64,000 bases of DNA from Collinsella sp. (GCA_018368055.1 JAGZFB010000001.1:22426-86425); one strand, 5' to 3'. Shown: positions 12,401-59,175, counted from the stretch's first letter. Made by a program: numbers and translations. Notes: generated by a model not told the origin, from the letters alone.

Positions 12401-12502
12401 GTCCCTGGGATGGGGCCCACACATATCGTCCCGCGCGCAGTTTCGCAGCGCAGCGAGAATGTTTGAGCACGGGATGATATGTGTGGGCCCCATCCCAGGG
12501 AC
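12401..12502. repeat. 33-bp near-perfect inverted repeat (1 mismatch) with 36-nt loop, between def stop and fmt start
   Basis: Left arm gtccctgggatggggcccacacatatcgtcccg (12401-12433); right arm cgggatgatatgtgtgggccccatcccagggac (12470-12502). Confidence 0.8.
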
Positions 12503-17086: not shown

Positions 17087-17167
17087 GGAAATCTCCTCGA
17101 TTGCAGGATGGATGTCTAACCGCATCAGTATAAAGCATCAAAGCAACCTCCGCACAAAGGGCACCGA

Positions 17168-18727: not shown

Positions 18728-18819
18728 AACGGTGGTGAAGATGCTTCGATATGAGCCTACGCTGCGTCACCAGCTAATGAATTTTGCAGCACACGCGCCT
18801 CTACCATGTATCCTTAGTT

Positions 18820-18934
18820 CCGAGGGCTTTGGTATTTGGTCGATCGCGAGTTCCGCACGAGCCGGAGGCCACTTAATGTGGCCTCCGTGCGAGCAGGACT
18901 GTCCGAGCAGGCGACCAAATACCAAAGCCCTCGG
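18820..18934 (+). ncRNA. structured palindromic element, copy A: 23-bp perfect outer inverted repeat enclosing an approx. 70-nt conserved asymmetric core with central hairpin. It sits in the sdaA 5' region. This is a candidate ncRNA/cis element of unknown function
   Basis: Outer arms ccgagggctttggtatttggtcg / cgaccaaataccaaagccctcgg. Core atcgcgagttccgcacgagcc-[ggaggccac ttaat gtggcctcc]-gtgcgagcaggactgt. The core recurs at 56532-56603 on the other strand with compensatory changes. Confidence 0.55.
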
Positions 18935-18962
18935 GACGACGGGACAGATTAAAGGAGCAGTC

Positions 18963-25997: not shown

Positions 25998-26009
25998 GCC
26001 ACCACCAAC

Positions 26010-26078
26010 AAGTTGCGGTGAATTAGGGACTAAATATGCTATCTAGCAGCAAATACAGACACTATTTCACCGCAACTT
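26010..26078. repeat. small palindromic element of the AAGTTGCGGTGAAATAGGGACT inverted-repeat family (copy 1, imperfect), 3' of the efflux permease
   Basis: Arms aagttgcggtgaattagggact ... ctatttcaccgcaactt. Core ttgcggtgaa / ttcaccgcaa is a 13-bp perfect repeat. AT-rich loop. A second, perfect copy lies at 56749-56817. Confidence 0.7.
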
Positions 26079-26208
26079 ATTGAAGGGCTGCTTGCGCCAG
26101 TTCCGGGCGTCGTCCTCGAGCTATTGGCGGATGACGGGCTTGTACGGGTCGAGCTTGCTCGGGGCGCTCCTCTTCGCGGGCGGGAGGGCGCGCAGGCGCG
26201 GCGAGCGC

Positions 26209-27620: not shown

Positions 27621-28136
27621 CTAGTACTCCACTCCTTCCCTTGCACATATCCCCTGCTCGTAGGGGTGTTTCTCGCACCGCATCTCGGTTATGTAGTCGG
27701 CCTTCTCCACAATCTTGCGGGAAGGCGCGCGCCCGGTGAGCGCAACTTCGACGCCGCGCGCGGACATATCGAGCGCACGGTCCACGAGCGCCTCGTCGAC
27801 AAGCCCCTTCGAAAGCGCGTCGAGCGCCTCGTCGAGCACGAGCAGTCCCTCCTGCGCGCCCTCGAGCTCGGCGAGCGCAGAAGCGAGGTTCCCATCGTGC
27901 AGCTCGCACGTCGCGGCAAGTTCTTCCGACGTCATTGACCAGGTAAACTTGTCCGACACCTTCCCCGCGAACACGGGCACGCCGAAATGCTCGGCGAGCA
28001 GGCGCGCCTCCCCGCTTTCGCCGTCTTTCAGGAACTGCACGACGACGACGCGGCGGCCTGCGGCGAGCATGCGAAGGGCGAGGCCCATCGCCGCCGTGGT
28101 CTTGCCTTTGCCGTCGCCATGATACACGTGGATCAT
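27621..28136 (-). CDS. cobO: cob(I)yrinic acid a,c-diamide adenosyltransferase
   Basis: MIHVYHGDGKGKTTAAMGLALR P-loop. Roughly 172 aa BtuR/CobA/CobO family. Start set at MIHVY to avoid overlap with cbiP. Confidence 0.85.
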   Translation of the reverse strand: MIHVYHGDGKGKTTAAMGLALRMLAAGRRVVVVQFLKDGESGEARLLAEHFGVPVFAGKVSDKFTWSMTSEELAATCELHDGNLASALAELEGAQEGLLVLDEALDALSKGLVDEALVDRALDMSARGVEVALTGRAPSRKIVEKADYITEMRCEKHPYEQGICAREGVEY

Positions 28137-29611: not shown

Positions 29612-29624
29612 GATGGGCTTCGCC

Positions 29625-30848: not shown

Positions 30849-31819
30849 GCCATCGCCCCCACGGCGAGCACGACCGCCGCGCGCGCGGCGCCGAAGACGG
30901 CGAGCGCGCATACGGACGCGGCGAGCATGAGCCTTGTCGCCCGGGCGATGTCGCCCCACTCGATTTCGCGGGACGCGTCGCCTATCGTCGGTTTCTCAAC
31001 GAGCTTGCCGAAATACACCGCGGGTCCTGCCAGGCGCAGCCCGAGCGCGCCCGCGCACGCTGACTCGGTCTGCGCCGCGTTCGGACTCGCATGGCGACGC
31101 CTGTCGCGGCGCCAGATACGCGCCGCCCCGCGCGCGTCGAGCCCGACGATCGGGCACACGGCGATCATGAGCAGGGCCGATAAGCGCGAGGGAATCCAGT
31201 TCACCGCATCGTCGAGGCGCGCCGAGGCGCAGCCGAAGTCGATGTAGCGCTCGTTTTTGTAGCCCACCATGCTGTCGAGCGTGTTCACAGCCTTGTACGC
31301 CATGCCCAAGGGCGCACCCCCGATCATAAGGTAGAAAAGCGGCGCGATGACGCCGTCGCTCGCGTTCTCCGCCACCGTTTCCACGGCGGCGCGCGCAACG
31401 CCCTGCTCGTCGAGAACAGACGTGTCGCGTCCCACGATGAGCCCGACTGTTTCGCGCGCCGCGACAAGGCCGCCCTTCGAGAACGCGCGGGCCACGGCCA
31501 GGCTCTGGCGGCGCAGCTCGCATGCCGCAAGAATCTGATAGCTCGCCCATGCCTCGGCCACGAAGCGCAAGCCGGGGTGAACCATGCCGCAAAGATGCAG
31601 GATTCCCCAGGTCAAAAGCCCACACGCAAGCGGAAGCGCCACGGCGAGCACAAGCCCTGCGGCGCGCGTGCCCGCGGACGTTTGCGGGAACGCGCCCCGC
31701 AGGCGGCCTTCGGCCCACGTGATCGCGCGCCCCATGGCGACGACGGGATGGGGAAGCCAGCGCGGGTCGCCGAAGGCAAGGTCGGCCGCGAACCCGGCGG
31801 CGACGGCAAAAATCGTCAT
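30845..31819 (-). CDS. cbiB: adenosylcobinamide-phosphate synthase
   Basis: Polytopic membrane protein of the CbiB/CobD family. Start set at MTIFAV; overlaps neighbours by a few nt. Confidence 0.8.
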   Translation of the reverse strand: MTIFAVAAGFAADLAFGDPRWLPHPVVAMGRAITWAEGRLRGAFPQTSAGTRAAGLVLAVALPLACGLLTWGILHLCGMVHPGLRFVAEAWASYQILAACELRRQSLAVARAFSKGGLVAARETVGLIVGRDTSVLDEQGVARAAVETVAENASDGVIAPLFYLMIGGAPLGMAYKAVNTLDSMVGYKNERYIDFGCASARLDDAVNWIPSRLSALLMIAVCPIVGLDARGAARIWRRDRRRHASPNAAQTESACAGALGLRLAGPAVYFGKLVEKPTIGDASREIEWGDIARATRLMLAASVCALAVFGAARAAVVLAVGAMA

Positions 31820-32820
31820 CACCGGGCATCGCTCCCCGAAGCGGGGCGAACGTCGCGAAGGCAGCGCCCATCCCAGGTGACAGCCCATGCGCCGCCCGGC
31901 TCGGTATGCACGTCGAAGTATCCCATTTTCGGGACAGCTAGCTCGGAGAGCAGCGCTTTCACGGTACCCGCGTGAACGACGAAGACGGCGCGCCCACTCC
32001 CCTGGGCACGCTCCGATTCGCACACCTCCCGAAACGCCGCGACGACGCGGCGGGTGAAATCACTCTTGCCCTCGCCATGCGGGCAGCGCGTCTCGCACCA
32101 GGAGTCTACCCAGGCGCGGTAGCGCGCATCCTCTTTAAGCTCGGCGGCGCTTCGCCCCTCGAAGTCGCCGAAATCCATCTCGCGCAGACCGGGGCACGCC
32201 ATAAGCTCCGCGTTCGGGAAGAGGATGCGCGCCGTCTGGTCGGTGCGGACCATGCCGCTCGTGATAACACGGAACACGTCACGATCGCACGCGAGGTCGC
32301 GCAAAGCGCGCTCACCCGCGCTCGACAGGGGCTCGTCGGTGCCTGCCCCGCTGTAGCGATGGTCTTCCGTGCCCGCCGTGGCACCATGGCGCACGAAGAC
32401 GACTTCCAAAGGCGCGACCGCGCCCTGCGTCCCTCGAGGCGCATCGGCAAGGTTTCCTTTGATGACCTGGGGAATCCCGCACGTCATGCGCACGACGACG
32501 TCGGCGCGCGCAGCGAGCGCGCATCCCAGGCGCCCCGCGCGCTCGCGCCATTGGGCGTCTTCCGCATGCATAGGGACGACCCCCGAGCCGACCAAGGACA
32601 GAATCACTGCGTCGAAGCCGATCAGCCGCTCGAGCGCCGGGTCAGCGTCGAGCGCGCGTACGAGTTCCTCAGCACGGTACGCGACGCGGCCGGCAAAAAC
32701 CGCGGGCACGCCGCCCTCCGCAAGCTGCGCCGCGTCGACGAAATCGTCCGCCGCGAACCCGAGCCTTTCGCGCACGAAGGTCCTCTTCCCCGAATGCGCG
32801 CCACCTACCACGAGAATCAT
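31819..32820 (-). CDS. cobC: fusion: degenerate CobU-like P-loop domain + alpha-ribazole phosphatase (histidine phosphatase, CobC)
   Basis: N-terminal MILVVGGAHSGKRTF P-loop and GIPQVIKG (compare CobU GIPVWMKG). C-terminal half has the RHG phosphoglycerate-mutase-family motif VVFVRHGATA. Confidence 0.65.
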   Translation of the reverse strand: MILVVGGAHSGKRTFVRERLGFAADDFVDAAQLAEGGVPAVFAGRVAYRAEELVRALDADPALERLIGFDAVILSLVGSGVVPMHAEDAQWRERAGRLGCALAARADVVVRMTCGIPQVIKGNLADAPRGTQGAVAPLEVVFVRHGATAGTEDHRYSGAGTDEPLSSAGERALRDLACDRDVFRVITSGMVRTDQTARILFPNAELMACPGLREMDFGDFEGRSAAELKEDARYRAWVDSWCETRCPHGEGKSDFTRRVVAAFREVCESERAQGSGRAVFVVHAGTVKALLSELAVPKMGYFDVHTEPGGAWAVTWDGRCLRDVRPASGSDAR

Positions 32821-33629
32821 AGGAGCATGCCCCCCGCCACCAGCATGGCAAGCATCGCGAGCTCGGCCCATTGCAGAAACCATCCGGCCAAATCACCCGT
32901 CACCCCGCCGAAGCGGGACAGGGCAACATGGCGGTACCACGCGAGCGCCAAAAGCCCCGCCACCGCCATAAGGGCGCCGACGGCCCGAACGCACGCGACC
33001 ATCCCTGCAGCCGAAGCCGCAGCGAAAGCGCAAAGCGGCACGACGATCACCGCGCGCCTCTTCGCAGGCGAGAGCCCCGCGGCCATGCCGTCCGCCCGCG
33101 CGGCAGGCCAGCATTCTACGGCGAGCCCCGAAAGCGCGCGGGAGAACACGAGCGAGCACAGAAGTGCGAGGAACGACCCCGCCGTAAGCGGCAGCGCGGT
33201 GAACAGGGAAAACTGCAGAATAAGGTACACGACAACACCAATGACCCCGAAGGCGCCCGCCCGCGGGTCGTGCATGATCTCGAGCTTTCGCTCGCGCGGG
33301 GCCCAACTTGCAAGCGCATCGGAGGTGTCGCAGAGCCCGTCTAGGTGGATGCCTCCCGTCACCGCCACAGGCAACGCCACGAGCACGGCCGCGACGATGG
33401 TCGCGGGCGCGCCGAGCAGGTTCGCCATGTGCCCCCACGCCGTCATGAGGAAGCCTTCCGCAACGCCCACCAGGGGAAACGCGGCAAGCGCATGGGTTGA
33501 TCCGAAATCGGTCCAGGCCGATTTCGGGACGGGGATGCGCGAGAACGTTCCGAACGCCGCGCCGATTGCCTCTGCTATCTTCACCTTGTAGGTCCTTCGC
33601 CTTTCATCCACACGGGAATCCCGCATACC
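32817..33629 (-). CDS. cobS: adenosylcobinamide-GDP ribazoletransferase (cobalamin synthase)
   Basis: Multi-TM protein with the CobS DGLCDTSDA motif. Start is uncertain; it overlaps the cobU 3' end. Confidence 0.75.
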   Translation of the reverse strand, partial: GMRDSRVDERRRTYKVKIAEAIGAAFGTFSRIPVPKSAWTDFGSTHALAAFPLVGVAEGFLMTAWGHMANLLGAPATIVAAVLVALPVAVTGGIHLDGLCDTSDALASWAPRERKLEIMHDPRAGAFGVIGVVVYLILQFSLFTALPLTAGSFLALLCSLVFSRALSGLAVECWPAARADGMAAGLSPAKRRAVIVVPLCAFAAASAAGMVACVRAVGALMAVAGLLALAWYRHVALSRFGGVTGDLAGWFLQWAELAMLAMLVAGGMLL

Positions 33630-34129
33630 ACTTCGACTGCGCGGTCGGCCAGCGCCGCCACGCCCGCGTTCACGCGCGCGAGCGCGCGCCTCCATCCCTC
33701 GGTCCCCTCATCGTAGCGCATCCCATCGGCGAACACGTCGACGGAGACCACCACCGTATACGCAGCGGCCTGAGTGAGTCGTTCGATGCCTCCGAGCACC
33801 TCGCGCGCCACAGCGTCGGGGTCACGTGGGGACAAGCCGCCTTCCGCGAAGAGCTCGTTCGCAACCAGGTTGCCCACGTCCTCCAAAAGAAGCGTGCAGC
33901 CGCGCGGAAGCCCGGGCACTGCGGCGCCCACGTCACGCGTGCGCTCGAGGGTGGAAAACCCCTTGCCCTCGCGCATCGCCCGATGGCGCGCGATACGGCG
34001 GGTGCCCTCTTCCCCGAAGGGCTCCATCGTTGCCAGGTACACGCGGGGGCCGTCGTGCCCGAGGCACAGGGACTCGGCATAGGCGCTCTTGCCGCTCGCG
34101 GCGGCGCCGATAACGAACGTCACCGTCAT
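33581..34129 (-). CDS. cobU: bifunctional adenosylcobinamide kinase / adenosylcobinamide-phosphate guanylyltransferase
   Basis: 182 aa with VIGAAASGKS P-loop and an HR...R region. Canonical CobU size. Confidence 0.85.
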   Translation of the reverse strand: MTVTFVIGAAASGKSAYAESLCLGHDGPRVYLATMEPFGEEGTRRIARHRAMREGKGFSTLERTRDVGAAVPGLPRGCTLLLEDVGNLVANELFAEGGLSPRDPDAVAREVLGGIERLTQAAAYTVVVSVDVFADGMRYDEGTEGWRRALARVNAGVAALADRAVEVVCGIPVWMKGEGPTR

Positions 34130-35268
34130 TTCCCGGCCTCGAAATGCTCGTAAGCAGCCATGCCAGTCGCCGTGAACGTCTTCCCATCCCGGTACACGCG
34201 CAGCGCCGAATCCAGAAGGGGCAGATACGCCATGGCGCCCGCGCCCTCGCCCAAGTGCATGCCTGCGTCGAGGGGTGCCTTTATGCCGAGCTCGCGAAGG
34301 AGCTCCTGGCTTGCGGGTTCGCTAGATGCGTGGGTGCCCACGAGGTAGCCCAAGGCGTTGGGGCACAGGCGCACCGCGCACAGGGCCGCCGTGCAGGATA
34401 TGACCCCGTCGAGGAGCGCCGGCGCCTTCGAGGCCGCGGCCCCCAGGTAGAAGCCACACATCGCCGCGATGTCGAAGCCGCCCACCTTCGAGAGCACGTC
34501 GATCGGGTCGGCGGGATCGGGCGAGTTCGCGTCGATAGCGCGCTCGACCACGTCGCGCTTGCGCGCGAGCGAGGTGTCCGAGAGCCCCGCGCCGCGCCCG
34601 ACGAGGCTCCGCGCGTCCGCTCGGATGAGCACTGCGGCCACCGCCGCCGAGGTGGTCGTGTTGCCGATGCCCATCTCGCCCGCGGCGAGAAGGCGCACGC
34701 CGGCGCGGGCGAGCCCGCACGCGACGGCGATTCCGACCTCGATCGCGCGCACGGCCCCATCGCGAGACATGGCGGAGCCGTGCGCGATGTTGCCGCTCCC
34801 CCGCCGCACGTTCGCGCGCACCATGCGAGCGTCTTCTATGCCCCGGGCCATACCCACGTCGACGGGCACGACCTCGGCACCCGCGAACGCCGCCATGCGG
34901 CAGGCGCTCGTGGCCCCCTCGCACATGTTGCGCGCGACGGCTCGCGTAACGTCTTGCCCGCTTTGCGACACGCCCTCGGCAACGACCCCGTTGTCGGAGA
35001 AGAATACCGCGAGCGCACGGGGAAACTCGGCCACCTCGGCGCTCCCCTGAGCTGCGGCGATACGCGCGACGGCGTCTTCAAAGTCGCCCAATCCCCCCAA
35101 AGGATGCGCGATGGAATCCCACGCGGCGTACGCGGCGGCGCGGGCACACTCATCTGCGGGCGCGATCCGGGAGAGCGCGGCTTCGAGCACGGCGCCCGGC
35201 GCCGACGAGAACGCGCGCTCGACTTCCTCGCGGATGCAGGCAAGCGCGGTTTCGGTTGCTTCAGCCAT
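34126..35268 (-). CDS. cobT: nicotinate-nucleotide--dimethylbenzimidazole phosphoribosyltransferase
   Basis: CobT family (GEMGIGNTT..., MHLGEGAGA). Start set at MAEATE. Confidence 0.85.
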   Translation of the reverse strand: MAEATETALACIREEVERAFSSAPGAVLEAALSRIAPADECARAAAYAAWDSIAHPLGGLGDFEDAVARIAAAQGSAEVAEFPRALAVFFSDNGVVAEGVSQSGQDVTRAVARNMCEGATSACRMAAFAGAEVVPVDVGMARGIEDARMVRANVRRGSGNIAHGSAMSRDGAVRAIEVGIAVACGLARAGVRLLAAGEMGIGNTTTSAAVAAVLIRADARSLVGRGAGLSDTSLARKRDVVERAIDANSPDPADPIDVLSKVGGFDIAAMCGFYLGAAASKAPALLDGVISCTAALCAVRLCPNALGYLVGTHASSEPASQELLRELGIKAPLDAGMHLGEGAGAMAYLPLLDSALRVYRDGKTFTATGMAAYEHFEAGK

Positions 35269-36619
35269 GCCGTCTCCTCTCTGCGAACGACGCTGTGGCA
35301 GACGCGAACGCGCGCGCAACGTCGGGGTTCGCAGGATAGTACACATGCGGGAAGCCCGCAACCAGGGCCGGGGTGGTCGTCATGCACGGCCAGCCCTTGT
35401 CGCGCCGGGGCTTCTGCGCCCAGAAGTCGCCGCCCGGGCAGGTGGACTGCCAGTAGTGGAACTCGTGCGCGCGGATGCGTGTGCCGCGCGGCCCGTAGAG
35501 CCCGTAACGTTGGGAAGTGAGCTCCACGTACCCGAAATGGGACAGCCTTCCCCCGTTCTCGCTTGCGCCCTCAAGGGCGCCCGCAACAGGCCAGCGCCGC
35601 CCCTCGCTATCGGAGATTTCGCGCTGCAGGTACAGAAACCCACCGCATTCGGCAACCGTCGGCATGCCGGATTCCACCGCACGCAGCACCGCCTCGCGCA
35701 TCGGCGCGTTCTCGGAGAGCTGCCGCGCATGGAGCTCCGGGTAGCCGCCTCCCAGATAGAGGGCGCTTGTCCCCCGGGGCAACTCGCTATCACACAGGGG
35801 GCTGAAAAAGGCCAGCTCGCAACCCAGGTCCTCGAGCGCGCGCAGGTTCTCCTCGTAGTAGAACGAGAACGCCTCGTCACGTGCGACGGCGACGATGGGC
35901 CGCGCTCCCGCGATCGGCTCCAACCGGTAAGGTTCCTCGCGGATATCGGGTGCCGTCGCCGCTATTTCGAGCAAGCGGTCGACGTCGACGCTCTTTTCCA
36001 CCAGCTCGGCCATCTTGTCGATGCGCGCGGAGAGCTGCTCGACCTCGTCGGCGGTCACAAGCCCCAAATGCCGGCTTTCGAGCGAGAACGCATCGTCGGC
36101 GGGGATATTCCCCAAAACCGCGACACCCGTGTGCTTCTCGATCGCAGGCTTCGCGTAGGCGCAGGCAGCGGCGCTCGTCTTGTTCAGCACGACGCCGCGC
36201 ACGTTCGCACAAGGCAGGAACTCGGCGATGCCGCGGATTACGGCGGCGAGCGATAAAGACGCCCCGCGCCCGTTCACCACTAAAACGACCGGCGTTTCCG
36301 TGTCGCACGCAACCTGGTAGCTGCTCGCATCGGCCACGCCGGGCGCCATGCCGTCGTAGAAGCCCATGGCCCCCTCGAGCACCGCGACATCCGCGCCCGC
36401 AGCGCCGCGTGCGAGCAGGGCGCGCAGCGTCGGGGCGTCGGTGAAGAAGCCGTCTAAGTTGCCCGAGCGCGCACCCACGACGCGGCGATGAAAGAGCGGG
36501 TCAATGTAGTCGGGGCCGCATTTGAAGGCCGCGCATGCGAGGCCGCGGCGCGCAAGCGCGCGCAGGAGCGCGCACGTAACGACCGTCTTGCCGCTCCCGC
36601 TCGAGGGCGCAGCGACCAT
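35261..36619 (-). CDS. cbiA: cobyrinate a,c-diamide synthase
   Basis: N-terminal MVAAPSSGSGKT ATPase and C-terminal GATase domain (ECGGFLYL). Start approximate. Confidence 0.85.
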   Translation of the reverse strand: MVAAPSSGSGKTVVTCALLRALARRGLACAAFKCGPDYIDPLFHRRVVGARSGNLDGFFTDAPTLRALLARGAAGADVAVLEGAMGFYDGMAPGVADASSYQVACDTETPVVLVVNGRGASLSLAAVIRGIAEFLPCANVRGVVLNKTSAAACAYAKPAIEKHTGVAVLGNIPADDAFSLESRHLGLVTADEVEQLSARIDKMAELVEKSVDVDRLLEIAATAPDIREEPYRLEPIAGARPIVAVARDEAFSFYYEENLRALEDLGCELAFFSPLCDSELPRGTSALYLGGGYPELHARQLSENAPMREAVLRAVESGMPTVAECGGFLYLQREISDSEGRRWPVAGALEGASENGGRLSHFGYVELTSQRYGLYGPRGTRIRAHEFHYWQSTCPGGDFWAQKPRRDKGWPCMTTTPALVAGFPHVYYPANPDVARAFASATASFAERRRHG

Positions 36620-36639
36620 GAAGCGAGGGATGGTCGTGC

Positions 36640-37989
36640 TCACCGGGCGCCGCCTTCCCCACCTGCACCACGCGCGCTGACGAGGAACACGGGGTTTTGC
36701 GCCTTCATAAGATGGTGCGAGCCTACAGCCTCGGCGCGGGCGGCCGACACCTGGCACGCCTCGAACCCCTTAAAGCGCGAACCCGAGAGGAGCGCGCACG
36801 CCTCGGTGAGCGTCTCAACGGTGACGCATGGCACGCACAGGCGAACCTGCGAGTTCTTCTCGAGCGCCGCCTCCACGATGGAGGGAAGCTCGCCCGCGCT
36901 CCCGCCGACGAACACGGCGTCGGGGACGGGCAGTTTCGCGAGCGCTTCGGGGGCGACACCGGGGATCGCATGCACGTTGCCGCACCCGAATGCATCCGCG
37001 TTCTCTCGGATGAGCCGCACGCCGGCCGCGTTGCGCTCGACCGCCCATACCGACCCCGTTCGCGCGACGAGCGCCGCCTCAATCGACACGCTCCCCGTGC
37101 CGGCGCCGACGTCCCACACGGTGTCGGTCGCGGTAAGGCGCAGCTTCGCGAGCGCGACGGCGCGCACCTCCTGCTTGGTCATGGGAACGTCGCCGCGGAT
37201 GAAAAGCTCGTCGGGAATGCCCGAGGAAGCGTACGGCCAGCGGGAGCTCGCGGCGCGGGATGCGCCCGCAAAGTCCGCCGCGGAAGAAGCCGCCGCGGGC
37301 GCGGACGCGCCGGCCGGCGCCTCGGAGGCTGCGCTAGAGCCCACAGGCGACCCGGCGCCGCTTGCGAACTCGATAAGCATCACGTTCAAGTCGTCGAACG
37401 TCTGACCTGCGATTTCACTTGCGGTCGCGCAGGTGATGCGCTCGTTGGGGTACGACAGGCGCTCGGCCACCGTCACGCGCGCGTCCCCGAAGCCCGCCTG
37501 CACAAGCTCGCCCGAAAGCCGCGAGGGGTCGTCCCCGCCCGACGTGGCGAGGAAGAGCTCGCCTGAGCGCTCGGCCTCGGCCACGATGTCGCACGCCACG
37601 CCGTGAGCGCTCGCGAAGCGCCAATCCTGCCATGGACGCGCGAGGCGCGCGGCGAGATACGACGCTGAGCTTATGCCGGGAATGATGCGCACGTCCACCT
37701 GCGCGTCGCCGGAGAGCGCCTCCACCAGGCGGCGCGCGCCGCTGAACAGCCCCACATCGCCCGTCATCACGACCACGGCGCGCTGCCACGACGCCGCATC
37801 GGTGAGCGCGGTGACGATGTCCGCCGTCTTCACGAGCTCGCATCTCACCACGTCGGGCGGCACGTCGATGCCGGCAAGCGCGCGATGAGCGCCGATGACC
37901 ACGTCGGCGATGTCGATCGCGTCGAGCGCCGCGCGCGAGAGCAAGTCGGGGTTTCCGGGCCCCGCCCCGATGATCGTTACCTTTCGCAT
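36640..37989 (-). CDS. cbiET: cobalt-precorrin-6B/7 methyltransferase and decarboxylase (CbiE-CbiT fusion, CobL-like)
   Basis: N-terminal tetrapyrrole methylase domain (VTIIGAGPGNPDLL), Ala/Ser-rich linker, C-terminal class I SAM-MTase (VWDVGAGTGSVSIE). Confidence 0.8.
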   Translation of the reverse strand: MRKVTIIGAGPGNPDLLSRAALDAIDIADVVIGAHRALAGIDVPPDVVRCELVKTADIVTALTDAASWQRAVVVMTGDVGLFSGARRLVEALSGDAQVDVRIIPGISSASYLAARLARPWQDWRFASAHGVACDIVAEAERSGELFLATSGGDDPSRLSGELVQAGFGDARVTVAERLSYPNERITCATASEIAGQTFDDLNVMLIEFASGAGSPVGSSAASEAPAGASAPAAASSAADFAGASRAASSRWPYASSGIPDELFIRGDVPMTKQEVRAVALAKLRLTATDTVWDVGAGTGSVSIEAALVARTGSVWAVERNAAGVRLIRENADAFGCGNVHAIPGVAPEALAKLPVPDAVFVGGSAGELPSIVEAALEKNSQVRLCVPCVTVETLTEACALLSGSRFKGFEACQVSAARAEAVGSHHLMKAQNPVFLVSARGAGGEGGAR

Positions 37990-38723
37990 GGAATCTCCCG
38001 ATACCCGCGCGGCGTGACCATACGGCCGCCTACGAGCTTCGTGTCCGCGTTGCCGACGAACACGGTGGTGAACATGTCGGCGTCGATCTCCCCCAGCTCG
38101 GAGAGCCTGCACATGCCCGACTGCTGCCCCTCGCGCCCGATGTTACGTACCCAGCCGCAGAGCGTGTCGGGGGCCTTCCATTCGAGCATAATCTTCGCCG
38201 CGCGTGAGAGCCTGTCGGCGCGCTTTCTGCTGCGCGGGTTGTACAAACAGATGCAGAAGTCGGCGCTCGCCACGGCGGCGAGCCTGCGCTCGATGACCTC
38301 CCATGGCGTGAGCAGGTCGGAGAGCGACACGACCGCGAAGTCGTGGGCAAGCGGGGCGCCGAGCACCGCCGACCCGCTCTGAGCCGCGGTGGCCCCGGCG
38401 ATAACTTCCACGTCTACATCGGGGTAGTCCTCCGCAAGCTCCAGCACGGGGCTCGCCATGCCGTACACGCCCGCGTCGCCGCTGCACACGAGCGCCACGG
38501 CTTCTCCACTCTGCGCGCGCGAAAGCGCAAGGCGGCACCGTTCGACCTCGTGCATCATCGGCGTCGCGAGATGCGCCGCGTCGGGCACGGCGGCGAGCGC
38601 GAGCTCCACGTATTTCGTGTAACCCACAACGACGTCGGACGCCTCGAGCGCACGCCGAGCCGCAATCGTCATGCCGTCGGGGCCGCCCGGGCCGATTCCC
38701 ACCACGAAGAGCTTTCCCATCAC
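37977..38723 (-). CDS. cbiH: cobalt-precorrin-3B C17-methyltransferase
   Basis: MMGKLFVVGIGPGGPDGMT; class III tetrapyrrole methylase. Confidence 0.8.
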   Translation of the reverse strand: MMGKLFVVGIGPGGPDGMTIAARRALEASDVVVGYTKYVELALAAVPDAAHLATPMMHEVERCRLALSRAQSGEAVALVCSGDAGVYGMASPVLELAEDYPDVDVEVIAGATAAQSGSAVLGAPLAHDFAVVSLSDLLTPWEVIERRLAAVASADFCICLYNPRSRKRADRLSRAAKIMLEWKAPDTLCGWVRNIGREGQQSGMCRLSELGEIDADMFTTVFVGNADTKLVGGRMVTPRGYREIPCER

Positions 38724-39853
38724 CGCTCCTTAAACGAAAGTTTAATAGTTACCTTGGAAAACGCGACGGTCACGCCGCCGTGAGCGAGCTTCGGGAAGAT
38801 AAGTTTGCCCCCCTCCGCGAGCGCTGCCCGCTCGCACACGTTGTCGACCCCCACCGTCGCGCGCACGAAATCAGATGGCGAAACGCTGCCTTCGACCTGC
38901 GACAACTCCTCTGCGGAATACGTCGCAAGCGGGATATTGCGCGCGCAGCAGAAGGCGAGCAGACCCTCCTCGTGCGCCTTCACGTCGATCGTCGCCGCCT
39001 CGCGCACGGCCGAAGGCGAGATACCCACCTGCCCGCACGCGAGAAGAAACGCCTCCTCGATCGCTTCGGCGCACGCACCGCGACGGCATCCTATGCCCGC
39101 AACGATGCAGGGCACGACAAGGCGAAGCGGCTCGGGCGCAGGCGCCTGCGCCCGCACGCCCGCCGGCTTCCCCGTCTCACCGGCGGGCACGACCTCGCCC
39201 GTTGTCTCCGCCGCACGAACGGACGCACCTGCATTCGCGCCAGCGAACGGCGACACGACGATATCGGCCCGAGCGCGGTCGGACGCAATGTCAACCCCCT
39301 CAGGCGGCTGTCCCGAAATCGGCATGTCGGAATAGAGCGCCACGCGCCCGCCCGAAAGCAGCCGCGCCGACACTCGCTTGATGGCCTCGGGATTCGAAAC
39401 GGCGAGCCCCGCACAGCGCGCCCACGTATCCACCGCCCACACGCCGCGGACGTCGGTCGCCGTGGTGATGACGGGGATGGCCCCTGCCGCGCGTGCCACA
39501 GTTTGCGCAAGCTCGTTCGCACCGCCCAAATGCCCCGACAAAAGCGGGACGGCAAAGCGCCCCGCCTCGTCGATCGCCACAACCGCGGGATCGTTTGCCT
39601 TCGAGGCGACATGCGGCGCGATCGCCCGCACGGCGATGCCCGCCGCGCCCACGAACAGAAGCGCGTCCGACGCTTCCCACGCGAGCGCCGTCCATGCGCG
39701 CAGGTCGGCCTTCCCCTCGCCGAACCCGCGCGAAACGGAAACGTCCCAGCCAGGGTCGTCTTCACCTGTCTGCGCGCAATAGGAAAGCGCGTGTGCGGTG
39801 CGCACCGCCAACGCATACCCCCTCTCAGTGAACGCTATGCAGGAAACCCTCAT
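38720..39853 (-). CDS. cbiG: cobalt-precorrin-5A hydrolase
   Basis: 377 aa, two-domain CbiG architecture. Position between cbiD and cbiH is conserved. Confidence 0.7.
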   Translation of the reverse strand: MRVSCIAFTERGYALAVRTAHALSYCAQTGEDDPGWDVSVSRGFGEGKADLRAWTALAWEASDALLFVGAAGIAVRAIAPHVASKANDPAVVAIDEAGRFAVPLLSGHLGGANELAQTVARAAGAIPVITTATDVRGVWAVDTWARCAGLAVSNPEAIKRVSARLLSGGRVALYSDMPISGQPPEGVDIASDRARADIVVSPFAGANAGASVRAAETTGEVVPAGETGKPAGVRAQAPAPEPLRLVVPCIVAGIGCRRGACAEAIEEAFLLACGQVGISPSAVREAATIDVKAHEEGLLAFCCARNIPLATYSAEELSQVEGSVSPSDFVRATVGVDNVCERAALAEGGKLIFPKLAHGGVTVAFSKVTIKLSFKER

Positions 39854-40087
39854 CTAGCGCACCACCATCGTCGAGAAGTAGCTGCCCCGATCGGGCACAT
39901 CGTCGAGCGAGCGGTACACGCGCTCGCCCGGAAGCCCACAGTCCTCTACAAGCTCAGCACCGTCGAAGGCACCCTCCTCGCAAAGGAAGCGCTTCGTGTC
40001 CGCAAGCGAGCGGCGCGCCTTCATGACCACCTTCGTCCCCGGCCAGCCGATTGCACGGCGCACCCCGTACAGAACGCCTTTACTCAT
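39854..40087 (-). pseudogene. 77-aa ORF resembling the C-terminal end of a class III tetrapyrrole methyltransferase (possible cbiL remnant)
   Basis: ...GLPGERVYRSLDDVPDRGSYFSTMVVR resembles the conserved methylase C-terminus (P-ERV-RGTL..L....ALIVVG). There is no room for the approx. 150-aa N-terminal domain between cbiD and cbiG. Confidence 0.35.
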
Positions 40088-50256: not shown

Positions 50257-50263
50257 AGATGCG

Positions 50264-50340
50264 TGGTAGCCCGTACCAGATTCGAACTGGTGATCTCCGC
50301 CTTGAGAGGGCGGCGTCCTAAACCGCTAGACGAACGGGCC
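50264..50340 (-). tRNA. tRNA-Glu (anticodon CUC), copy 1
   Basis: Reverse complement folds as a cloverleaf: acceptor GGCCCGU/ACGGGCU, anticodon stem CCGCC/GGCGG, loop CUCUCAA, T-arm ACCAGUUCGAAUCUGGU, encoded CCA. Confidence 0.9.
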
Positions 50341-50362
50341 ATAAGCCTCAGCAGAAAAGAAG

Positions 50363-50439
50363 TGGTAGCCCGTACCAGATTCGAACTGGTGATCTCCGCC
50401 TTGAGAGGGCGGCGTCCTAAACCGCTAGACGAACGGGCC
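50363..50439 (-). tRNA. tRNA-Glu (anticodon CUC), copy 2 (identical tandem duplicate)
   Basis: Sequence identical to copy 1, separated by a 22-nt spacer. Confidence 0.9.
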
Positions 50440-50566
50440 ACATGACATCTGCACTGCCGTGCTGCGAGGAAATATATTACGGGACAAAAAACGTCAGCGC
50501 AAGAAGAAATTCCAAATTGCCGAAAAATTGTCGGCAGGTTATGGAATACGCAGGTAAACTTGGTAG

Positions 50567-54253: not shown

Positions 54254-55957
54254 TTAGCGAGCTGCGGACTCGAGCAGCGCCTTGACCTCGGCGGCGGTGT
54301 TGCAGGCGAGTGCCTTCTCGGCGAGCTCGTCGCACTCGGCCTTGGTCCACTGGCTGATGGTCTTGCGGGCGCGCAGGATCGACGGAGCGCTCATCGAGAA
54401 CTCCTCCAGGCCCCAGCTGATCAGCAGCGGCTCAAGCAGCGGATCGGCAGCGGCCTCGCCGCACATGCCGACCATGATGCCGGCCTTCACGCCGCTCTCG
54501 ATGATGTTCTTGAGCGAGCGGAGAACGGCGGGATAGTACACCTGGTACAGGTTGGAGATGGTGTCGTTGCCACGGTCGGCGCACATGGTGTAGCCGATCA
54601 GGTCGTTGGTGCCGATGGAGAAGAAGTCGGCGACCTCGGCCAGACGGTCAGCGAGCAGCGAAGCGGCAGGCGTCTCGACCATGATGCCGACCTCGATGTT
54701 CTCGTTGAACTTACGACCCTCTTCGGTCAGCTCGGCCTTGCACTGCTCGACGAGCTCCTTGACGGCCACGACCTCCTCGACGCAGGTGACGAGCGGGATC
54801 ATGATCTTGACGTCACCAAAGGCGCTGGCGCGCAGCAGAGCGCGGAGCTGGACCTTGTACTGGTCGGGGTTGGCCAGGCAGTAACGCACGGCGCGGAAGC
54901 CCATGAAGGGGTTGTCTTCCTTGACCATGTGCAGGTACGGGATCTCCTTGTCGCCGCCCACATCGAGCGTGCGGATGATGACCGGAGCACCCTTGAGCGC
55001 GCTGGCGACCTTGCGGTAGGCGTTAAACTGCTCCTCCTCGGAAGGAAGCTCAGCGGAGTCCATGAACAGGAACTCGGAGCGGAACAGACCGATGGCCTCG
55101 GCGTCGTGATCGAGCGCGTTGGGCACGTCATCGGGGTTACCGATGTTGCAGGCGATGATCTTCTTGATGCCGTCGGCAGTCACAGAAGGCTTGCCGCGGA
55201 AGGCCTCGAGAGCCGCCTTCTCGGCAGCGAAAGCCTCGGCCTTGGCGGTGTAGGCGGCGAGGGTCTCCTCGTCGGGATCGGCCTCGACGACACCCTTGCC
55301 ACCGTCGACGACAACGGTCATGCCGTTGCGCAGTGCGGTGCAGCTGTTGGCAACCGAAAGGACAGCCGGGATCTCAAGGGCGCGCGCGATGATTGCGGAG
55401 TGCGACGTGCGGCCACCGGTCTCGGTGACGATACCGGCAACGTGGGGCTTATCGATCGTAGCGGTCATGGACGGCGTAAGGTCGTGCACGACAACGACGG
55501 TGTTCTCGGGCAGGACGGAGAGGTCGACGACCTCCTTGCCCAGCAGCTCGGCCAGAATACCGGTGCGGATGTCGGCGATGTCGGCCGCGCGCAGACGGAA
55601 CATCTCGTCGTCCATGGACAGGAACATGTTCTCGAACATGGTCGAGGTGTCCATGAGCGCCTGCTCGGCGCAGGTGCCGCCGTCAATAGCGGCGTTAATG
55701 GCGTCGGTCATGCCCGGATCCTGAGCCAGGACAATGTGCCCGCTCATGATCTCGGCCTCGGCCTCGCCCACCGTCTCCTTCATGTGGTCGGCCTGAGCCT
55801 GGGTCTTCTCGCAGAAGACCGAAAGAGCAGCCTGATAACGCTCCTTCTCTGCGGCCGAATCAGCAACCGCGTGCGGTTCAAACGTCAAGTCGGGATCGAC
55901 GGCGACCATGACGGTGCCGATACCGATGCCCTCGGATGCGTTGACTCCCTGATACAT
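54254..55957 (-). CDS. ptsI: phosphoenolpyruvate--protein phosphotransferase (PTS enzyme I)
   Basis: GGRTSHSAIIARALEIPAV phospho-His region and PEP-utilising C-terminal domain. Start at MYQGVNASEG. Confidence 0.9.
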   Translation of the reverse strand: MYQGVNASEGIGIGTVMVAVDPDLTFEPHAVADSAAEKERYQAALSVFCEKTQAQADHMKETVGEAEAEIMSGHIVLAQDPGMTDAINAAIDGGTCAEQALMDTSTMFENMFLSMDDEMFRLRAADIADIRTGILAELLGKEVVDLSVLPENTVVVVHDLTPSMTATIDKPHVAGIVTETGGRTSHSAIIARALEIPAVLSVANSCTALRNGMTVVVDGGKGVVEADPDEETLAAYTAKAEAFAAEKAALEAFRGKPSVTADGIKKIIACNIGNPDDVPNALDHDAEAIGLFRSEFLFMDSAELPSEEEQFNAYRKVASALKGAPVIIRTLDVGGDKEIPYLHMVKEDNPFMGFRAVRYCLANPDQYKVQLRALLRASAFGDVKIMIPLVTCVEEVVAVKELVEQCKAELTEEGRKFNENIEVGIMVETPAASLLADRLAEVADFFSIGTNDLIGYTMCADRGNDTISNLYQVYYPAVLRSLKNIIESGVKAGIMVGMCGEAAADPLLEPLLISWGLEEFSMSAPSILRARKTISQWTKAECDELAEKALACNTAAEVKALLESAAR

Positions 55958-56089
55958 TCCCAATCCTCTCTCCGTGTCATGTGATAAAGCGTTTTGCCAT
56001 ATCCATGACAAAAGAGCGCAGCTACCTTGAACAGGTCACTGCGCCCCTAAGTATGAACTTAATTGTTCAACATGCGACCCGTTTGAGTT

Positions 56090-56353
56090 CTACTCGCCAA
56101 GACCGCTCTTGATGAGCTCAATGGCAGCAGCCAGAGCCTCGGCCTCGTCAGCGCCGTCGCACTTGACCTCGACCTCGGTACCGCAAGGGATACCAGCAGC
56201 CATGAGGGCCATCGGGGACTTGCCGTTGACCTCCTTCTCGGGGGTGACGACCGTCACGTCGCAGGCGTACTTGCCCATGGTGGAGGCGAAGAGGCCGGCC
56301 GGACGCATGTGAAGACCCTGCGGATTGACGAGGGTAGCCTTCTCAGAAACCAT
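56090..56353 (-). CDS. ptsH: phosphocarrier protein HPr
   Basis: 87 aa with LVNPQGLHMRPAG (His15 region). Confidence 0.9.
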   Translation of the reverse strand: MVSEKATLVNPQGLHMRPAGLFASTMGKYACDVTVVTPEKEVNGKSPMALMAAGIPCGTEVEVKCDGADEAEALAAAIELIKSGLGE

Positions 56354-56491
56354 AATTGACTCCTTTTTTGTGTTTAACCCCTGTCATGCATGCGGCAGGA
56401 GTCAGATTCACGACGTTGTTTATATTAACTCACATCAAACGGTTTTTCATTATGTTTCGCACGAATTGTTGGACAGATGTGTTTGTCGTCG

Positions 56492-56643
56492 GCTTGCTCG
56501 CCCATAGGGGGCCGGGCGCGGCCTGTGAGATTTCCTGCTCTACAGTCCTGCTCGCACGAAGAGCACATTAAGTGCTCTTCGGCTCGTGCGGAACTCGCGA
56601 TAAATCTCACAGGCCGCGCCCGGCCCCCTATGGGCGAGCAAGC
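56492..56643 (-). ncRNA. structured palindromic element, copy B: 40-bp perfect outer inverted repeat enclosing the same approx. 70-nt conserved core as 18843-18911, in reverse orientation
   Basis: Outer arms gcttgctcgcccatagggggccgggcgcggcctgtgagat / exact reverse complement. The core on the minus strand reads ttatcgcgagttccgcacgagcc-[gaagagcac ttaat gtgctcttc]-gtgcgagcaggactgt. It lies between fruA and ptsH inside a minus-strand operon. Confidence 0.55.
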
Positions 56644-56748
56644 TGCGGAAACTCGGTCGGTCCAGAGCAATATCGTGCGAACGAAATTCTGGCTGATTTT
56701 TTGTTCGGCTGGTTGATCTAGTTGATGAGGTCTATCTATGCCCTTTTT

Positions 56749-56817
56749 AAGTTGCGGTGAAATAGGGACTGAATTTGGGGTTGAATCGTTTAAACAGTCC
56801 CTATTTCACCGCAACTT
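56749..56817. repeat. small palindromic element of the AAGTTGCGGTGAAATAGGGACTG family (copy 2, perfect 23-bp terminal inverted repeats, 23-nt loop)
   Basis: aagttgcggtgaaatagggactg ... cagtccctatttcaccgcaactt. Related to 26010-26078. Confidence 0.75.
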
Positions 56818-56900
56818 ATATCGGGAATGAAAAAGGCGGAGGCCCTGGAGAGGGTCTCCGCCTTTGTTGCAAGGGGCGATATTATTCGCTAGCTGCTGGA

Positions 56901-58904
56901 TTAAACCAGGCGGGCGTTGATCGTCTTGGCGATCTCGGCGGCGTCGGTGGAACCCTTGACGGTGGCACGGAAGTCCTCGTCCATAAGCGCCTCGGCGACC
57001 TTGGACAGGATCTTGAGATGCGTGGTGCCAGCCTGAGCGCCCGGGATGAGCAGGGCGATGGCAACGTTGACGGGAGCGCCATCCATAGTGTCCCAACCGG
57101 TCACGCCAGAGTCGTCCTTGACGACGATGACGGCAGCCTCGGTGATGGCGTCGGACTTGGCATGCGGAATGGCGAAGCCCTCCATCATGCCCGTGGTGCC
57201 CTCGGCCTCGCGGGCCAGGAAGGCGTTCATCACGGCGTCGGCATCGCCGGCGATACCGGCCTTAACGGCCTGGTTGGAGACAAAGCTCAGAGCCTCGTCA
57301 CGAGAAGCGAAGTCCTCGGCGACAAAGACGTTCTCGACCTTCACGAAGTCGGAAGCCTCGGCCTTGGGGGCCTCGACAGCAGCGGCCTTAGGGGTCTCAG
57401 CCGGCTTGGCTGCAGGAGCGGGCTTCTGGTTCTTCTCGAAGTCGTACTTCTTGAAGGCCACGAACAGGATGCCACCGACCACGGCGCCGATGAGGATCGC
57501 GAGGACCCACTGCGGGCCGTTCTCGACAACGGGCAGGACCAGGAAGCCGCCGTGAGGCGCCGGATCGTGAACGTTGAAGAAGATGGTCAAGATGGAAGCG
57601 ATGGAAGAACCGACCATCATGATAGGCATGACGGGCCAGATGTTCTTGGTCATGAACGGAATGGCGCCCTCGGTGATGTGGGTGCAACCAAGGATAAGGT
57701 TGACGATACCGGCGTCATGATCCTCCTGGCTGAAGTACTTCTTGCCGACAACGACGGCGAAGGTGGTGATCAGCGGCGGAACGATGCAAGCGGCGGAGAC
57801 GGCAGCCATGAAGTTGGTGCCGAAGTTGTAGGTCTCGGTGCCGACGCCAGCTTCGAGAGCGGTGCCGAGCAGGAAGGTGCCAGTAGCGTAAGCAGCCTTG
57901 TTGACCGGGCCGCCCATATCAAAGGCGCACATGCAGCCGATGGCCAGGCCAAGGATCACCGGACCGGAGTTACCGAGGCTCTGCAGGAAATCCATCATGC
58001 CCTGGTTAATGGCAGCCATGGGGCCGGAAATACCGAGCATGACCAGGCCGACGATGGCGGTAGAGCAAAGCGGATACAGGAAGATTGCCTTCAGGCCATT
58101 AAGGCTCGCGGGAATTTTAGAGAAAACCTTCTCGAGCAGCAAAATGACATAGCCGGCGAGGAAGCCGCCGACGATGCCGCCCAGGAAGCCGAAGCCCACG
58201 CCGGCGCCACCGGCGTCGATCATGCCGGTCTCGGCGTTAACAGGCAGGCCCTGGATGGCAATCATACCGGCAACGAAACCGGGGACGAGCGCCGGGCGCT
58301 TGCCGATGGATTCGGCGATGTAGGCGGAAAGCACCGGAACCATAAGGTTCATGGCGATGCCGCCGATGATCTTGAGCATCGCAGCAAAGCTGTTGTAGTC
58401 GGCAGCCGTCGAATCAAAGGACGTGATGCCCCACAGGAACGAAATGGCGGTCAGAACACCACCGGCAACGACGAAGACCAGCATGTGGCTGACGCCGTTC
58501 ATGAGGTGCTTGTAGATGACGTGGCCGATGGACTCCTTCTCCTCGACCTCGTCCTCGACATCGGCGGCAGCGGCAACCGTGTCGTCGCCCTTGGCGGCGA
58601 GCGCGCGGTCGATCAGCTTACCAGCAGTCTCGACAGACAGGGCCTTGGAAACACCAACGGAAACCATGGGCTTACCGGCGAAACGCTCAGCCTGGACATC
58701 CTTATCGGCTGCGACGACGACGGCCTTGGCACCGGCGATCTCGCTCTTGGTGAGCTCGTTCTCGACACCGACCTGGCCATGAGTCTCGACCTTAATGGTC
58801 AGACCGCGCTCGGCAGCTGCCTTCTCCAGCGCCTCCTTCGCCATGAAGGTGTGCGCAATGCCGGTCGGGCAACCGGTCGCGGCGATGATGTCAAACTTAG
58901 CCAT
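56901..58904 (-). CDS. fruA: PTS fructose transporter subunit IIBCA
   Basis: N-terminal IIB (MAKFDIIAATGCPTGIAHT, Cys), central IIC polytopic domain, C-terminal IIA (mannitol/fructose type, His). Start at MAKFD. Confidence 0.85.
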   Translation of the reverse strand: MAKFDIIAATGCPTGIAHTFMAKEALEKAAAERGLTIKVETHGQVGVENELTKSEIAGAKAVVVAADKDVQAERFAGKPMVSVGVSKALSVETAGKLIDRALAAKGDDTVAAAADVEDEVEEKESIGHVIYKHLMNGVSHMLVFVVAGGVLTAISFLWGITSFDSTAADYNSFAAMLKIIGGIAMNLMVPVLSAYIAESIGKRPALVPGFVAGMIAIQGLPVNAETGMIDAGGAGVGFGFLGGIVGGFLAGYVILLLEKVFSKIPASLNGLKAIFLYPLCSTAIVGLVMLGISGPMAAINQGMMDFLQSLGNSGPVILGLAIGCMCAFDMGGPVNKAAYATGTFLLGTALEAGVGTETYNFGTNFMAAVSAACIVPPLITTFAVVVGKKYFSQEDHDAGIVNLILGCTHITEGAIPFMTKNIWPVMPIMMVGSSIASILTIFFNVHDPAPHGGFLVLPVVENGPQWVLAILIGAVVGGILFVAFKKYDFEKNQKPAPAAKPAETPKAAAVEAPKAEASDFVKVENVFVAEDFASRDEALSFVSNQAVKAGIAGDADAVMNAFLAREAEGTTGMMEGFAIPHAKSDAITEAAVIVVKDDSGVTGWDTMDGAPVNVAIALLIPGAQAGTTHLKILSKVAEALMDEDFRATVKGSTDAAEIAKTINARLV

Positions 58905-59175
58905 GTGTCCCTCCTTCTTGAGTACAGCGCCCGCGGGCGCTCCCCTACACGCGCTTCGATGCGCGTTTTTCCACAACTGAAAGATACCAACCTACCGTCC
59001 GCGTGAGAAGAGACAAGGCGCAATTCTCCGGTGAAAGGTTCTTTCATAACCGTAAACGGCAAGTGAAAGTTTACCATCAACACTTGAAACGGCAAGGTGT
59101 ATCTTGTAAATGAAACTACCCGTATACTATGGCATGAAAAACGAGTCCGATTTTCATGCCAACCAGGAGCCATCC

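Follow-up and report, generated by a model that had tools for sequence, protein, structure and literature searches.

What fills the long non-coding gap between two genes of a sugar transport cluster, and does it serve to regulate them? The question arises in a 64,000-nt stretch of DNA from a Collinsella sp. of the Collinsella aerofaciens type (GCA_018368055.1 JAGZFB010000001.1:22426-86425; hereafter the window), where a fructose-family phosphotransferase system (PTS) gene ('fruA') and ptsH are separated by a 547-nt spacer (the fru-ptsH spacer, 56354-56900). An initial annotation, made from the sequence alone, placed this spacer inside an operon and described in it a 152-bp composite palindrome and a 69-bp element with 23-nt terminal inverted repeats, here called IR2. 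[quoted passage not shown] The coordinates proved correct, and dispersed copies of both elements bear out the assignment to two unrelated palindromic repeat families. The spacer is best read as an ordinary gap between terminator and promoter in which two non-coding, palindromic DNA repeats reside. It is on balance probable, with considerable room for doubt, that these are REP/MITE-like repeats at the DNA level, kept uniform by concerted evolution in two tiers and without a dedicated regulatory role at fru-ptsH.

The composite palindrome and its strain variation

The composite palindrome (56492..56643, 152 bp), recognized by inverted-repeat search, folding and a covariance model, is copy B of what is here termed the core family. 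It carries its 'forward' core on the minus strand, the forward centre being defined as GAGTTCCGCACG...GCAGGACTG. Its arms (56492-56533 and 56602-56643) are 100% complementary, as annotated, over 42 nt each rather than the 40 bp first given, and enclose a centre of 68 nt (56534-56601). The arm sequence is unique within the window, with 0 matches expected by chance, and the palindrome folded as RNA reaches -131.7 kcal/mol (z = -16.7 relative to shuffled sequences). The covariance model scores 107.2 bits on the minus strand and about 42 bits on the plus strand; because the opposite strands of both copy B and a second copy in the window, copy A, score only about 42 bits, the centre is clearly asymmetric. 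No T-run follows the composite palindrome or IR2 on either strand, and separate canonical terminators adjoin the modules.

The covariance model finds exactly three core copies in the 64-kb window. Copy A (18812..18942, plus strand, 110.7 bits) lies between the metK terminator and the start of the L-serine dehydratase gene (18963), its end 20 nt from the ATG. Its 31-nt arms are unrelated to those of copy B, while 18843-18902 of copy A and 56542-56601 of copy B are 90% complementary and their tip hairpins differ in a compensatory manner (GAAGAGCAC/GTGCTCTTC versus GGAGGCCAC/GTGGCCTCC), which upholds the conserved covarying core that the initial annotation had claimed. Copy C (12401..12502, plus strand, 31 bits) is degenerate; it lies in the def-fmt spacer, 11 nt past the def stop codon, and its tip hairpin is deleted, leaving a 24-nt loop. 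A full core is present at the orthologous site in another genome (L109). Among strains with identical Def, the def-fmt copy has at least four arm alleles that have tips (GTCCC...GGGAC) and inner ends in common and wholly different middles, and in one strain the centre is flipped.

Variation at the fru-ptsH site was followed in an alignment of the window with ten genomes that share the junction (11 strains), all with identical HPr. The same HPr occurs on many contigs, including CP024160.1 (L004) and CP084004.1 (L009), both of which we take to be C. aerofaciens. Mean pairwise identity among the 11 strains is 92.5% in the block next to ptsH, 82% in the centre of the palindrome, 76% in the linker beyond it, 72% in IR2 and 63-67% in the palindrome arms. 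At least three arm alleles occur (42, 31 and about 41 nt), each of them self-complementary. In L004 the entire centre is reverse-complemented between arms that are otherwise unchanged, an arrangement found in one of 16 genomes at this site and in none at other well-sampled sites. The mirror-image open reading frames (ORFs) predicted on the two strands are, as annotated, artefacts of the palindrome: the arms of other strains differ by 11-nt indels and wholesale changes of sequence. All 16 genomes of the C. aerofaciens complex that were examined carry the composite palindrome in the same slot, so it is old at fru-ptsH and did not land there recently.

Distribution of the core family

Each prokaryotic species was represented by one genome (185,579 species genomes) in a search for an exact pattern, which gave at least 120 stretches. 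The matches listed are all from Collinsella or Coriobacteriaceae, many of them titled only 'uncultured bacterium', apart from one contig binned as Methanobrevibacter smithii. The DNA fetched around matches contains 147 occurrences at a minimum of 22 flank-defined chromosomal sites, or 30 if sites are clustered on one flank. In 711 kb of Collinsella loci the covariance model gives about 120 forward matches, 25-30 of them beyond its seeds, which suggests tens of core copies per genome. About one-fifth of the genome matches are at the end of a contig, in line with a repeat of about 100 nt that has many copies. A phage association was considered and dropped: two matches to 'viral contigs' are host regions, and one of the contigs (L139) is chromosomal site 9.

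Neither family is described in the literature on Collinsella or Coriobacteriia repeats, invertons, REP sequences or MITEs that was searched, and the core sequence is absent from the searchable supplement files of PMC8040213, which lists Collinsella candidate RNAs. At the Rfam gathering threshold the window yields two tRNAs only, and at E<=10 the spacer matches only generic (miRNA-like) hairpin models.

Both families appear to be confined, as far as sampled, to the C. aerofaciens complex. Collinsella sp. zg1085, whose HPr is 90% identical, has the same gene order with a 269-nt spacer that holds neither element, and the covariance model finds no copy in this locus or in four loci of other, more distant relatives. 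The 3' flank of gatB gives a similar picture. C. tanakaei and two other relatives (GatB 86-89% identical) have no module there; in C. tanakaei and one of the two an ordinary terminator stands in its place, and in the third the next gene begins 48 nt after the stop codon. A relative with 94% identical GatB (L145) retains the module. The initial annotation had suggested that orthologous junctions be searched for empty sites. The 269-nt zg1085 junction does lack the elements, but the flanks of distant relatives are too diverged to place boundaries, and no precise empty site could be defined. No target-site duplication or direct repeat was found at the boundaries of either family. The notion of insertion thus stands in part. 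In its favour are the zg1085 spacer and the replacement of IR2 in two of the 11 strains; against it are the missing target-site duplication and clean empty site and the age of the composite palindrome at this position.

Architecture and pairing

Individual elements measure about 130-155 bp and have a conserved, asymmetric centre of about 90-100 nt made of nested helices; the segment that is near-identical between sites measures 86-102 nt and is centred on the tip loop. Outside this segment the arms are site-specific and G+C-rich and still complementary. The consensus of 51 non-redundant copies is a single long irregular hairpin. Its parts are outer and inner arms; an asymmetric internal loop in which GAG faces either TGTAGAG or TGTCCGAG; a helix, GTTCCGC/GCAGGAC, in which one mismatch is fixed; a helix of 4-5 bp, of which there are three sequence versions; and a covarying tip hairpin of 9 bp. 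The asymmetric and unpaired nucleotides (the GAG versus TGTAGAG-type bulge and the GTTCCGC/GCAGGAC mismatch) are conserved in 51/51 aligned copies.

Double compensatory changes occur at 22 of the 33 consensus pairs, and one-sided changes are almost absent. Mismatches of the G·U and A·C types are equally rare (about 11 each), and there is no wobble excess on the likely transcribed strand in either positional class. Compensation that is Watson-Crick only marks the element as a palindrome of DNA and not as an RNA selected on one strand. Whichever strand is read, the 5' arm is rich in G and the 3' arm in C.

The three inner-helix versions and several tip-hairpin versions occur in differing combinations at the same site across genomes. 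We read these shuffled combinations as gene conversion between copies, confined to the homologous centre. Inversion of the centre recurs away from fru-ptsH: at site 20 it is inverted in L017 relative to L148, with the same arms. The module that L145 carries after gatB (4696-4801) has the tip GGAGGCGCC-ACTG-GGCGCCTCC instead of the TTAAT-loop hairpin, which means that neither the sequence nor the loop of the tip hairpin is essential; the seeming invariance of the TTAAT loop is partly an artefact of the search pattern. Site-specific crossover at that loop was entertained and is not claimed, as the loop differs in L145 and hybrid hairpins can be explained by allelic recombination or assembly chimeras.

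The ends of the arms (GTCCC...GGGAC type) stay conserved where arm middles diverge, and between sites only short arm tips of the G(G/T)(A/T)CC type recur. The arms drift at about the neutral rate, since unconstrained neighbouring DNA is nearly as diverged; for the same reason an earlier description of them as 'hypervariable' was toned down. The idea that arms are drawn from a shared sequence pool was likewise abandoned, as 9-mer sharing between sites is barely above that of the flanks and is explained by G+C-rich composition.

A third palindrome family was noticed in the gltX-metK gap (17167-17264; 37-nt arms, ACCTACTCATTGGGGACAGACTTAAATGACCAG, and a 24-nt loop). L017 carries the loop in inverted form, and L064 and L113 have other sequence in its place, L113 with three copies of the TCATTGGGGAC motif.

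Position and orientation relative to genes

The forward orientation bears a regular relation to the neighbouring genes. At 13-15 of the 30 site clusters a gene reads into the module, and its stop codon is 4-42 nt from the right arm. Three clusters have a start codon at 13-21 nt from that arm (of the genes for L-serine dehydratase, in the window, GHMP kinase and LeuRS). Several further right arms, that of the ptsH site included, adjoin promoter-like sequence. The mirror arrangement, with the left side at a coding boundary, has one candidate only. Genes in the fetched loci were called with a third-codon-position G+C (GC3) heuristic, and some errors were corrected by hand. In the ten stop-side ORFs checked, Pfam domains extend to the C-termini (PcrA/UvrD, ValRS, GatB, NrdD, a TsaD fusion, SDR, DUF711, S58 peptidase and others). 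A recurrent 'LS-stop' motif beside the modules was accordingly discarded, Pfam showing natural C-termini.

At sites 3, 10, 12 and 0e a canonical terminator lies past the module in the sense of the gene, which places the module within the 3' untranslated region (UTR) and makes module and terminator distinct. Copies at the 5' ends of genes mirror those at the 3' ends, so the orientation rule is not explained by any one strand of RNA. Replication direction does not account for it either, adjacent copies being often mutually inverted; GC skew in the window tracks the coding strand, without a switch. Adjacent inverted modules have their left sides facing, 90-250 nt apart. No recombinase or transposase gene was found near the copies examined, and the genes between paired modules are ordinary (CstA, a sulfatase and others).

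Two further features were seen beside core palindromes. A motif, CCAAAATAAACCTGTCCCTTTTTGGCAGG, adjoins them at three sites (in the left flanks of L015, L016, L029, L101 and L124) and looks like another small repeat or a shared terminator-like hairpin. A non-coding leader of about 370 nt, beginning ...ACTGTCGTGGGGTAAAGTCCGAGGTCAG, lies between a core palindrome and cstA (about 7450-7500 in L082; about 400-770 in L103); its conservation in nucleotides and not in protein suggests that it may be a leader RNA.

Origin and upkeep of the palindromes

Family membership, architecture, Watson-Crick-only compensation, flips of the centre and position relative to genes are matters of observation. The mechanism proposed to underlie them would operate at two levels. 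In the first tier, copies at different loci would exchange their homologous centres by gene conversion, leaving the centre near-identical everywhere and its sequence variants shuffled among sites. In the second, the two arms of one copy would correct each other, by intra-palindrome recombination or by hairpin-templated repair, so that arms would remain complementary yet drift at about the neutral rate; the same process would now and then invert the centre. The composite palindrome most likely has no dedicated role in PTS regulation at fru-ptsH. There it has a terminator on one side and the presumed ptsH promoter on the other, and transcription through it is probably slight.

Several points weigh against this account. 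A purely neutral or selfish repeat does not predict the strict orientation rule, with the right side at 13-15 stop and three start codons against a single left-side candidate. The asymmetry of the centre persists, symmetrised in one copy only (L124), which suggests that something reads the centre. The material surveyed yielded neither a mobilising enzyme or parent element nor a target-site duplication or precise empty site, and for that reason mobility is deduced from distribution only. Several apparent recombinants (L073, L127, L152 and hybrid hairpins) come from metagenome-assembled contigs and could be chimeras formed at the repeat. An RNA-level effect of modules that lie in UTRs is also possible. 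The orientation rule is the most interesting residue.

The main rival takes that rule as its starting point. The element would be an oriented, structure-specific DNA site whose centre, as duplex, cruciform or single-stranded hairpin, is bound by a protein of the host or of the element (a recombinase, transposase or nucleoid protein); its role would be that of a recombination site, or of a mark or insulator at transcription-unit ends. A mirror-image orientation at starts and stops, explicable only by reading at the DNA level, speaks for such a site, as do the invariant unpaired and asymmetric nucleotides, the palindrome tips that persist while arm middles diverge, the inverted neighbours with facing left sides and candidate inversions between neighbouring cores (L127). 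Gene conversion between copies can, however, account for the conserved centre by itself, and the tip hairpin is dispensable in L145. Nor was a recombinase or transposase seen near any copy examined, and a phmmer search of 1.17 Mb of loci with Y1-transposase queries, a weak test, gave no match; on the whole we hold this alternative to be unlikely, though the orientation rule, the lasting asymmetry of the centre and the conserved tips keep it in play. We think it rather improbable that the elements act in RNA, as hairpins of about 150 nt in UTRs that protect mRNA ends or serve as RNase III processing sites, roles in which REP, ERIC and Correia elements have been described. Many copies must be transcribed, as most come after a stop codon but before the intrinsic terminator of the same gene (sites 3, 10, 12 and 0e) and others lie just upstream of a start codon; the predicted folds are extremely stable, and the arms have the same G-rich/C-rich polarity on either strand. 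Yet the strand that enters the transcript is not the same for copies at 5' ends as for those at 3' ends but the opposite one, so that the conserved asymmetry cannot serve one RNA function. The transcribed strand, moreover, shows no tolerance of G·U pairs, neither palindrome has a U-tract of its own, and copy B occupies a probably little-transcribed position.

Two regulatory explanations specific to single genes fare worse. In a phase-variable inverton, the 68-nt centre would invert between inverted repeats of 31-42 nt and so control ptsHI. Both orientations do exist, at fru-ptsH (L004 versus 15 others) and at two other palindromes, but flips are rare, a promoter scan of the centre finds no promoter-like sequence, the centre lacks a U-tract terminator, no invertase or recombinase gene lies within 6 kb in ten genomes, and the conserved block upstream of ptsH is outside the invertible segment; we consider such a switch very improbable. 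Still less credence, indeed next to none, is given to a cis-regulatory leader RNA or riboswitch for the downstream gene. Copies A and B do share an orientation relative to sdaA and ptsH, and covariation is strong, but most members come after the stop codons of housekeeping genes that are unrelated to one another and have the opposite transcriptional sense (PcrA/UvrD, ValRS, GatB, NrdD, TsaD and others), Rfam has no match, and the centre flips or loses its hairpin without loss of the neighbouring gene. The positional data largely refute this reading. The regulatory RNA hub of the initial annotation is likewise unsupported, given the lack of an Rfam match, the strict Watson-Crick pairing and the mirror orientation at the 5' and 3' ends of genes.

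If DNA-level repeats under two-tier concerted evolution are the answer, the core family offers a compact natural case in which homogenisation acts between copies on the centre and within copies on the arms. Among the Actinobacteria of the human gut, Collinsella aerofaciens is one of the most common, and its genomes fall into hundreds of species-level clusters; a family that abuts housekeeping stop codons, breaks short-read assemblies, flips its centre between strains and may mediate inversions bears on the quality of metagenome-assembled genomes, on strain typing and on searches for structured RNAs. The rule that one side faces coding sequence would, if functional, point to an unknown DNA-level system at gene boundaries. 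A bolder version of the DNA-site hypothesis, to which we attach a low probability, is that the elements are DNA sites of a new class, oriented and structure-specific, which flank transcription units and whose asymmetric centre and conserved tips are recognised by a dedicated protein. Were this so, the protein would use them as polar boundary elements or, much as attC sites and REP hairpins are used, as substrates of recombination or transposition; arms specific to a locus would be needed only to extrude or fold the site, and the mirror orientation would be functional and not historical.

Comparison with known systems

One close parallel is with the REP/BIME elements of Enterobacteria and the REPIN-RAYT systems of Pseudomonas, short extragenic palindromes present in tens to hundreds of copies at gene ends, especially at 3' ends and between convergent genes. 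REP-type repeats have no target-site duplications, are co-transcribed as UTR hairpins and are hot spots of recombination, and 'RIP' units among the BIMEs have a conserved central motif between inverted palindromic units. The core palindrome resembles them in being a short imperfect palindrome with many dispersed extragenic copies. In REP sequences, however, the conserved unit is the arm, with a constant tetranucleotide at its 5' end, and a REPIN is a pair of inverted REPs about a variable spacer, whereas the core palindrome conserves an asymmetric centre and has arms that are peculiar to each site; IR2 does have conserved arms and a variable middle. The core palindrome also lacks a GTAG-type head, and its mirror orientation rule is stricter than any we know of for REPs. 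A cognate RAYT gene, which encodes a Y1 HUH transposase, is typically flanked by the repeats; the phmmer search, with IS608 TnpA and E. coli RAYT queries against 7,665 stop-to-stop segments (1.17 Mb of loci), found no match to one, although the test is a weak one.

Correia/NEMIS elements of Neisseria, ERIC/IRU, RUP and BOX are non-coding long-hairpin repeats of 70-170 bp, restricted to a genus or family, located in UTRs and variable between strains. Of the two families, IR2, with its 23-nt conserved terminal inverted repeats and variable middle, fits the description of a MITE best. Both families differ from MITEs in having no target-site duplication and no parent insertion sequence (IS) that could be found, and the core palindrome conserves only the extreme arm tips and the centre.

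With invertons, invertible promoters between inverted repeats of the sort that PhaseFinder-type approaches detect, the core family has in common a short segment between inverted repeats that occurs in both orientations (at fru-ptsH, at site 20 and, in the third palindrome family, in the 17167-17264 loop). The segment differs in having no promoter detectable by scan and no invertase nearby, and its flips are rare and occur also in a degenerate copy; recombination between long perfect arms, with flips as a by-product, explains them better. Integron attC sites are likewise imperfect palindromes in which pairing and a few asymmetric extrahelical bases are conserved rather than overall sequence. 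An attC site, however, conserves the base of its stem (R''/L''-L'/R' boxes), varies in the centre and stands in cassette arrays with an adjacent integrase, whereas the core palindrome has variable stem bases, housekeeping neighbours and no integrase. Large palindromes whose arms are held uniform by gene conversion into each other, such as the chloroplast inverted repeats and those of the human Y chromosome, resemble it in having arms that are near-identical to each other yet divergent between lineages, and a spacer that occurs in both orientations. They differ in scale by three to five orders of magnitude and presumably also in repair pathway.

The IR2 element

IR2 spans 56738..56828, with no assigned strand. 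It consists of a 69-nt unit (56749-56817; 23+23+23) extended imperfectly to arms of 34 nt. The perfect 23-nt arms are 56749-56771 and 56795-56817, and the fold has z = -9.7 relative to shuffles. A second copy in the window (26006..26082, also without assigned strand) lies 9 nt past the stop codon of a MacB/FtsX-type ABC permease gene that is convergent with cbiJ; each of its arms is 2 nt off that of the spacer copy, and its loop is unrelated. In 1.1 Mb of Collinsella DNA the family has about eight sites; its arms (AAGTTGCGGTGAAATAGGGACTG) are conserved and covary, and its variable middle frequently forms a small hairpin of its own. In two of the 11 strains (L002 and L004) about 66 nt of unrelated sequence stand in place of IR2, which is not a clean absence.

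The spacer and its flanking genes

The gene that precedes the spacer on the minus strand (56901..58976) encodes a PTS EIIB-EIIC-EIIA protein (Pfam PTS_IIB, PTS_EIIC and PTS_EIIA_2), and the NCBIfam models of the fructose-specific IIC, IIA and IIB domains exceed their cut-offs. The spacer runs from the end of this EIIBCA ORF (56901) to the ptsH ATG (56353-56351). ptsH, encoding HPr (56090..56353, minus strand), is followed by ptsI (54254-56011, minus strand), both assigned by Pfam and NCBIfam. Beyond ptsI lie two genes of the 1-phosphofructokinase family, and upstream there is a divergent RpiR-type regulator (Pfam/NCBIfam). The fruA-ptsH gene order is common to ten other genomes. L009 (CP084004.1) carries an IS110-family transposase gene (9109-10833) after the first pfkB terminator, between its two pfkB genes. 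This insertion is absent from nine other genomes and from the window, and from its position after the pfkB terminator it was judged unrelated to the palindromes.

On the minus strand the order is EIIBCA gene, intrinsic terminator, IR2, composite palindrome and a 138-nt block upstream of ptsH, and the three inverted repeats detected in the spacer are the terminator hairpin (15 nt), IR2 and the composite palindrome. The intrinsic terminator of the EIIBCA gene (about 56827-56865, minus strand) is a G+C-rich 15-nt hairpin followed by TTTTT, with the minus-strand sequence AAAGGCGGAGACCCTCTCCAGGGCCTCCGCCTTTTTC. A terminator scan gives a partial match to it, and hairpin and T-run are retained in the 11 strains, with compensatory changes. 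Between the two palindromic elements lies a linker (56644..56737, no strand) of 94 nt with no recognised feature.

The block upstream of ptsH (56354..56491, minus strand) has the highest pairwise identity of any spacer segment. It contains a -10-like CATAAT (56449-56454) and a GGAG ribosome-binding site (56360-56363). Its conservation and the CATAAT hexamer suggest that it probably holds the ptsH promoter, although a strict sigma-70 promoter scan of the whole spacer, palindrome included, finds none. With a canonical terminator after the EIIBCA gene and this 92%-conserved block before ptsH, the first description of the spacer as lying inside an operon is not supported. Just downstream of CATAAT, in this almost invariant block, is an imperfect dyad, TGAAAAACCGTTTGA (56435-56449, minus strand). 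It resembles an operator of the LacI/CcpA type and could be the true regulatory site of ptsHI.

Other features of the window

Each of two tandem tRNA genes (50267-50340 and 50366-50439, minus strand), whose starts are 99 nt apart, is contained in one of two identical direct repeats of 79 nt (50263-50341 and 50362-50440). The direct-repeat families of the window are dominated by a coding segment (5064-5873) of degenerate tandem repeats of GCC/AAG/CCC/GAG-type codons, read as a region rich in Ala, Lys, Pro, Glu and Thr. The G+C content is 0.68-0.69 over 28001-40000, against about 0.58-0.63 in most of the window.

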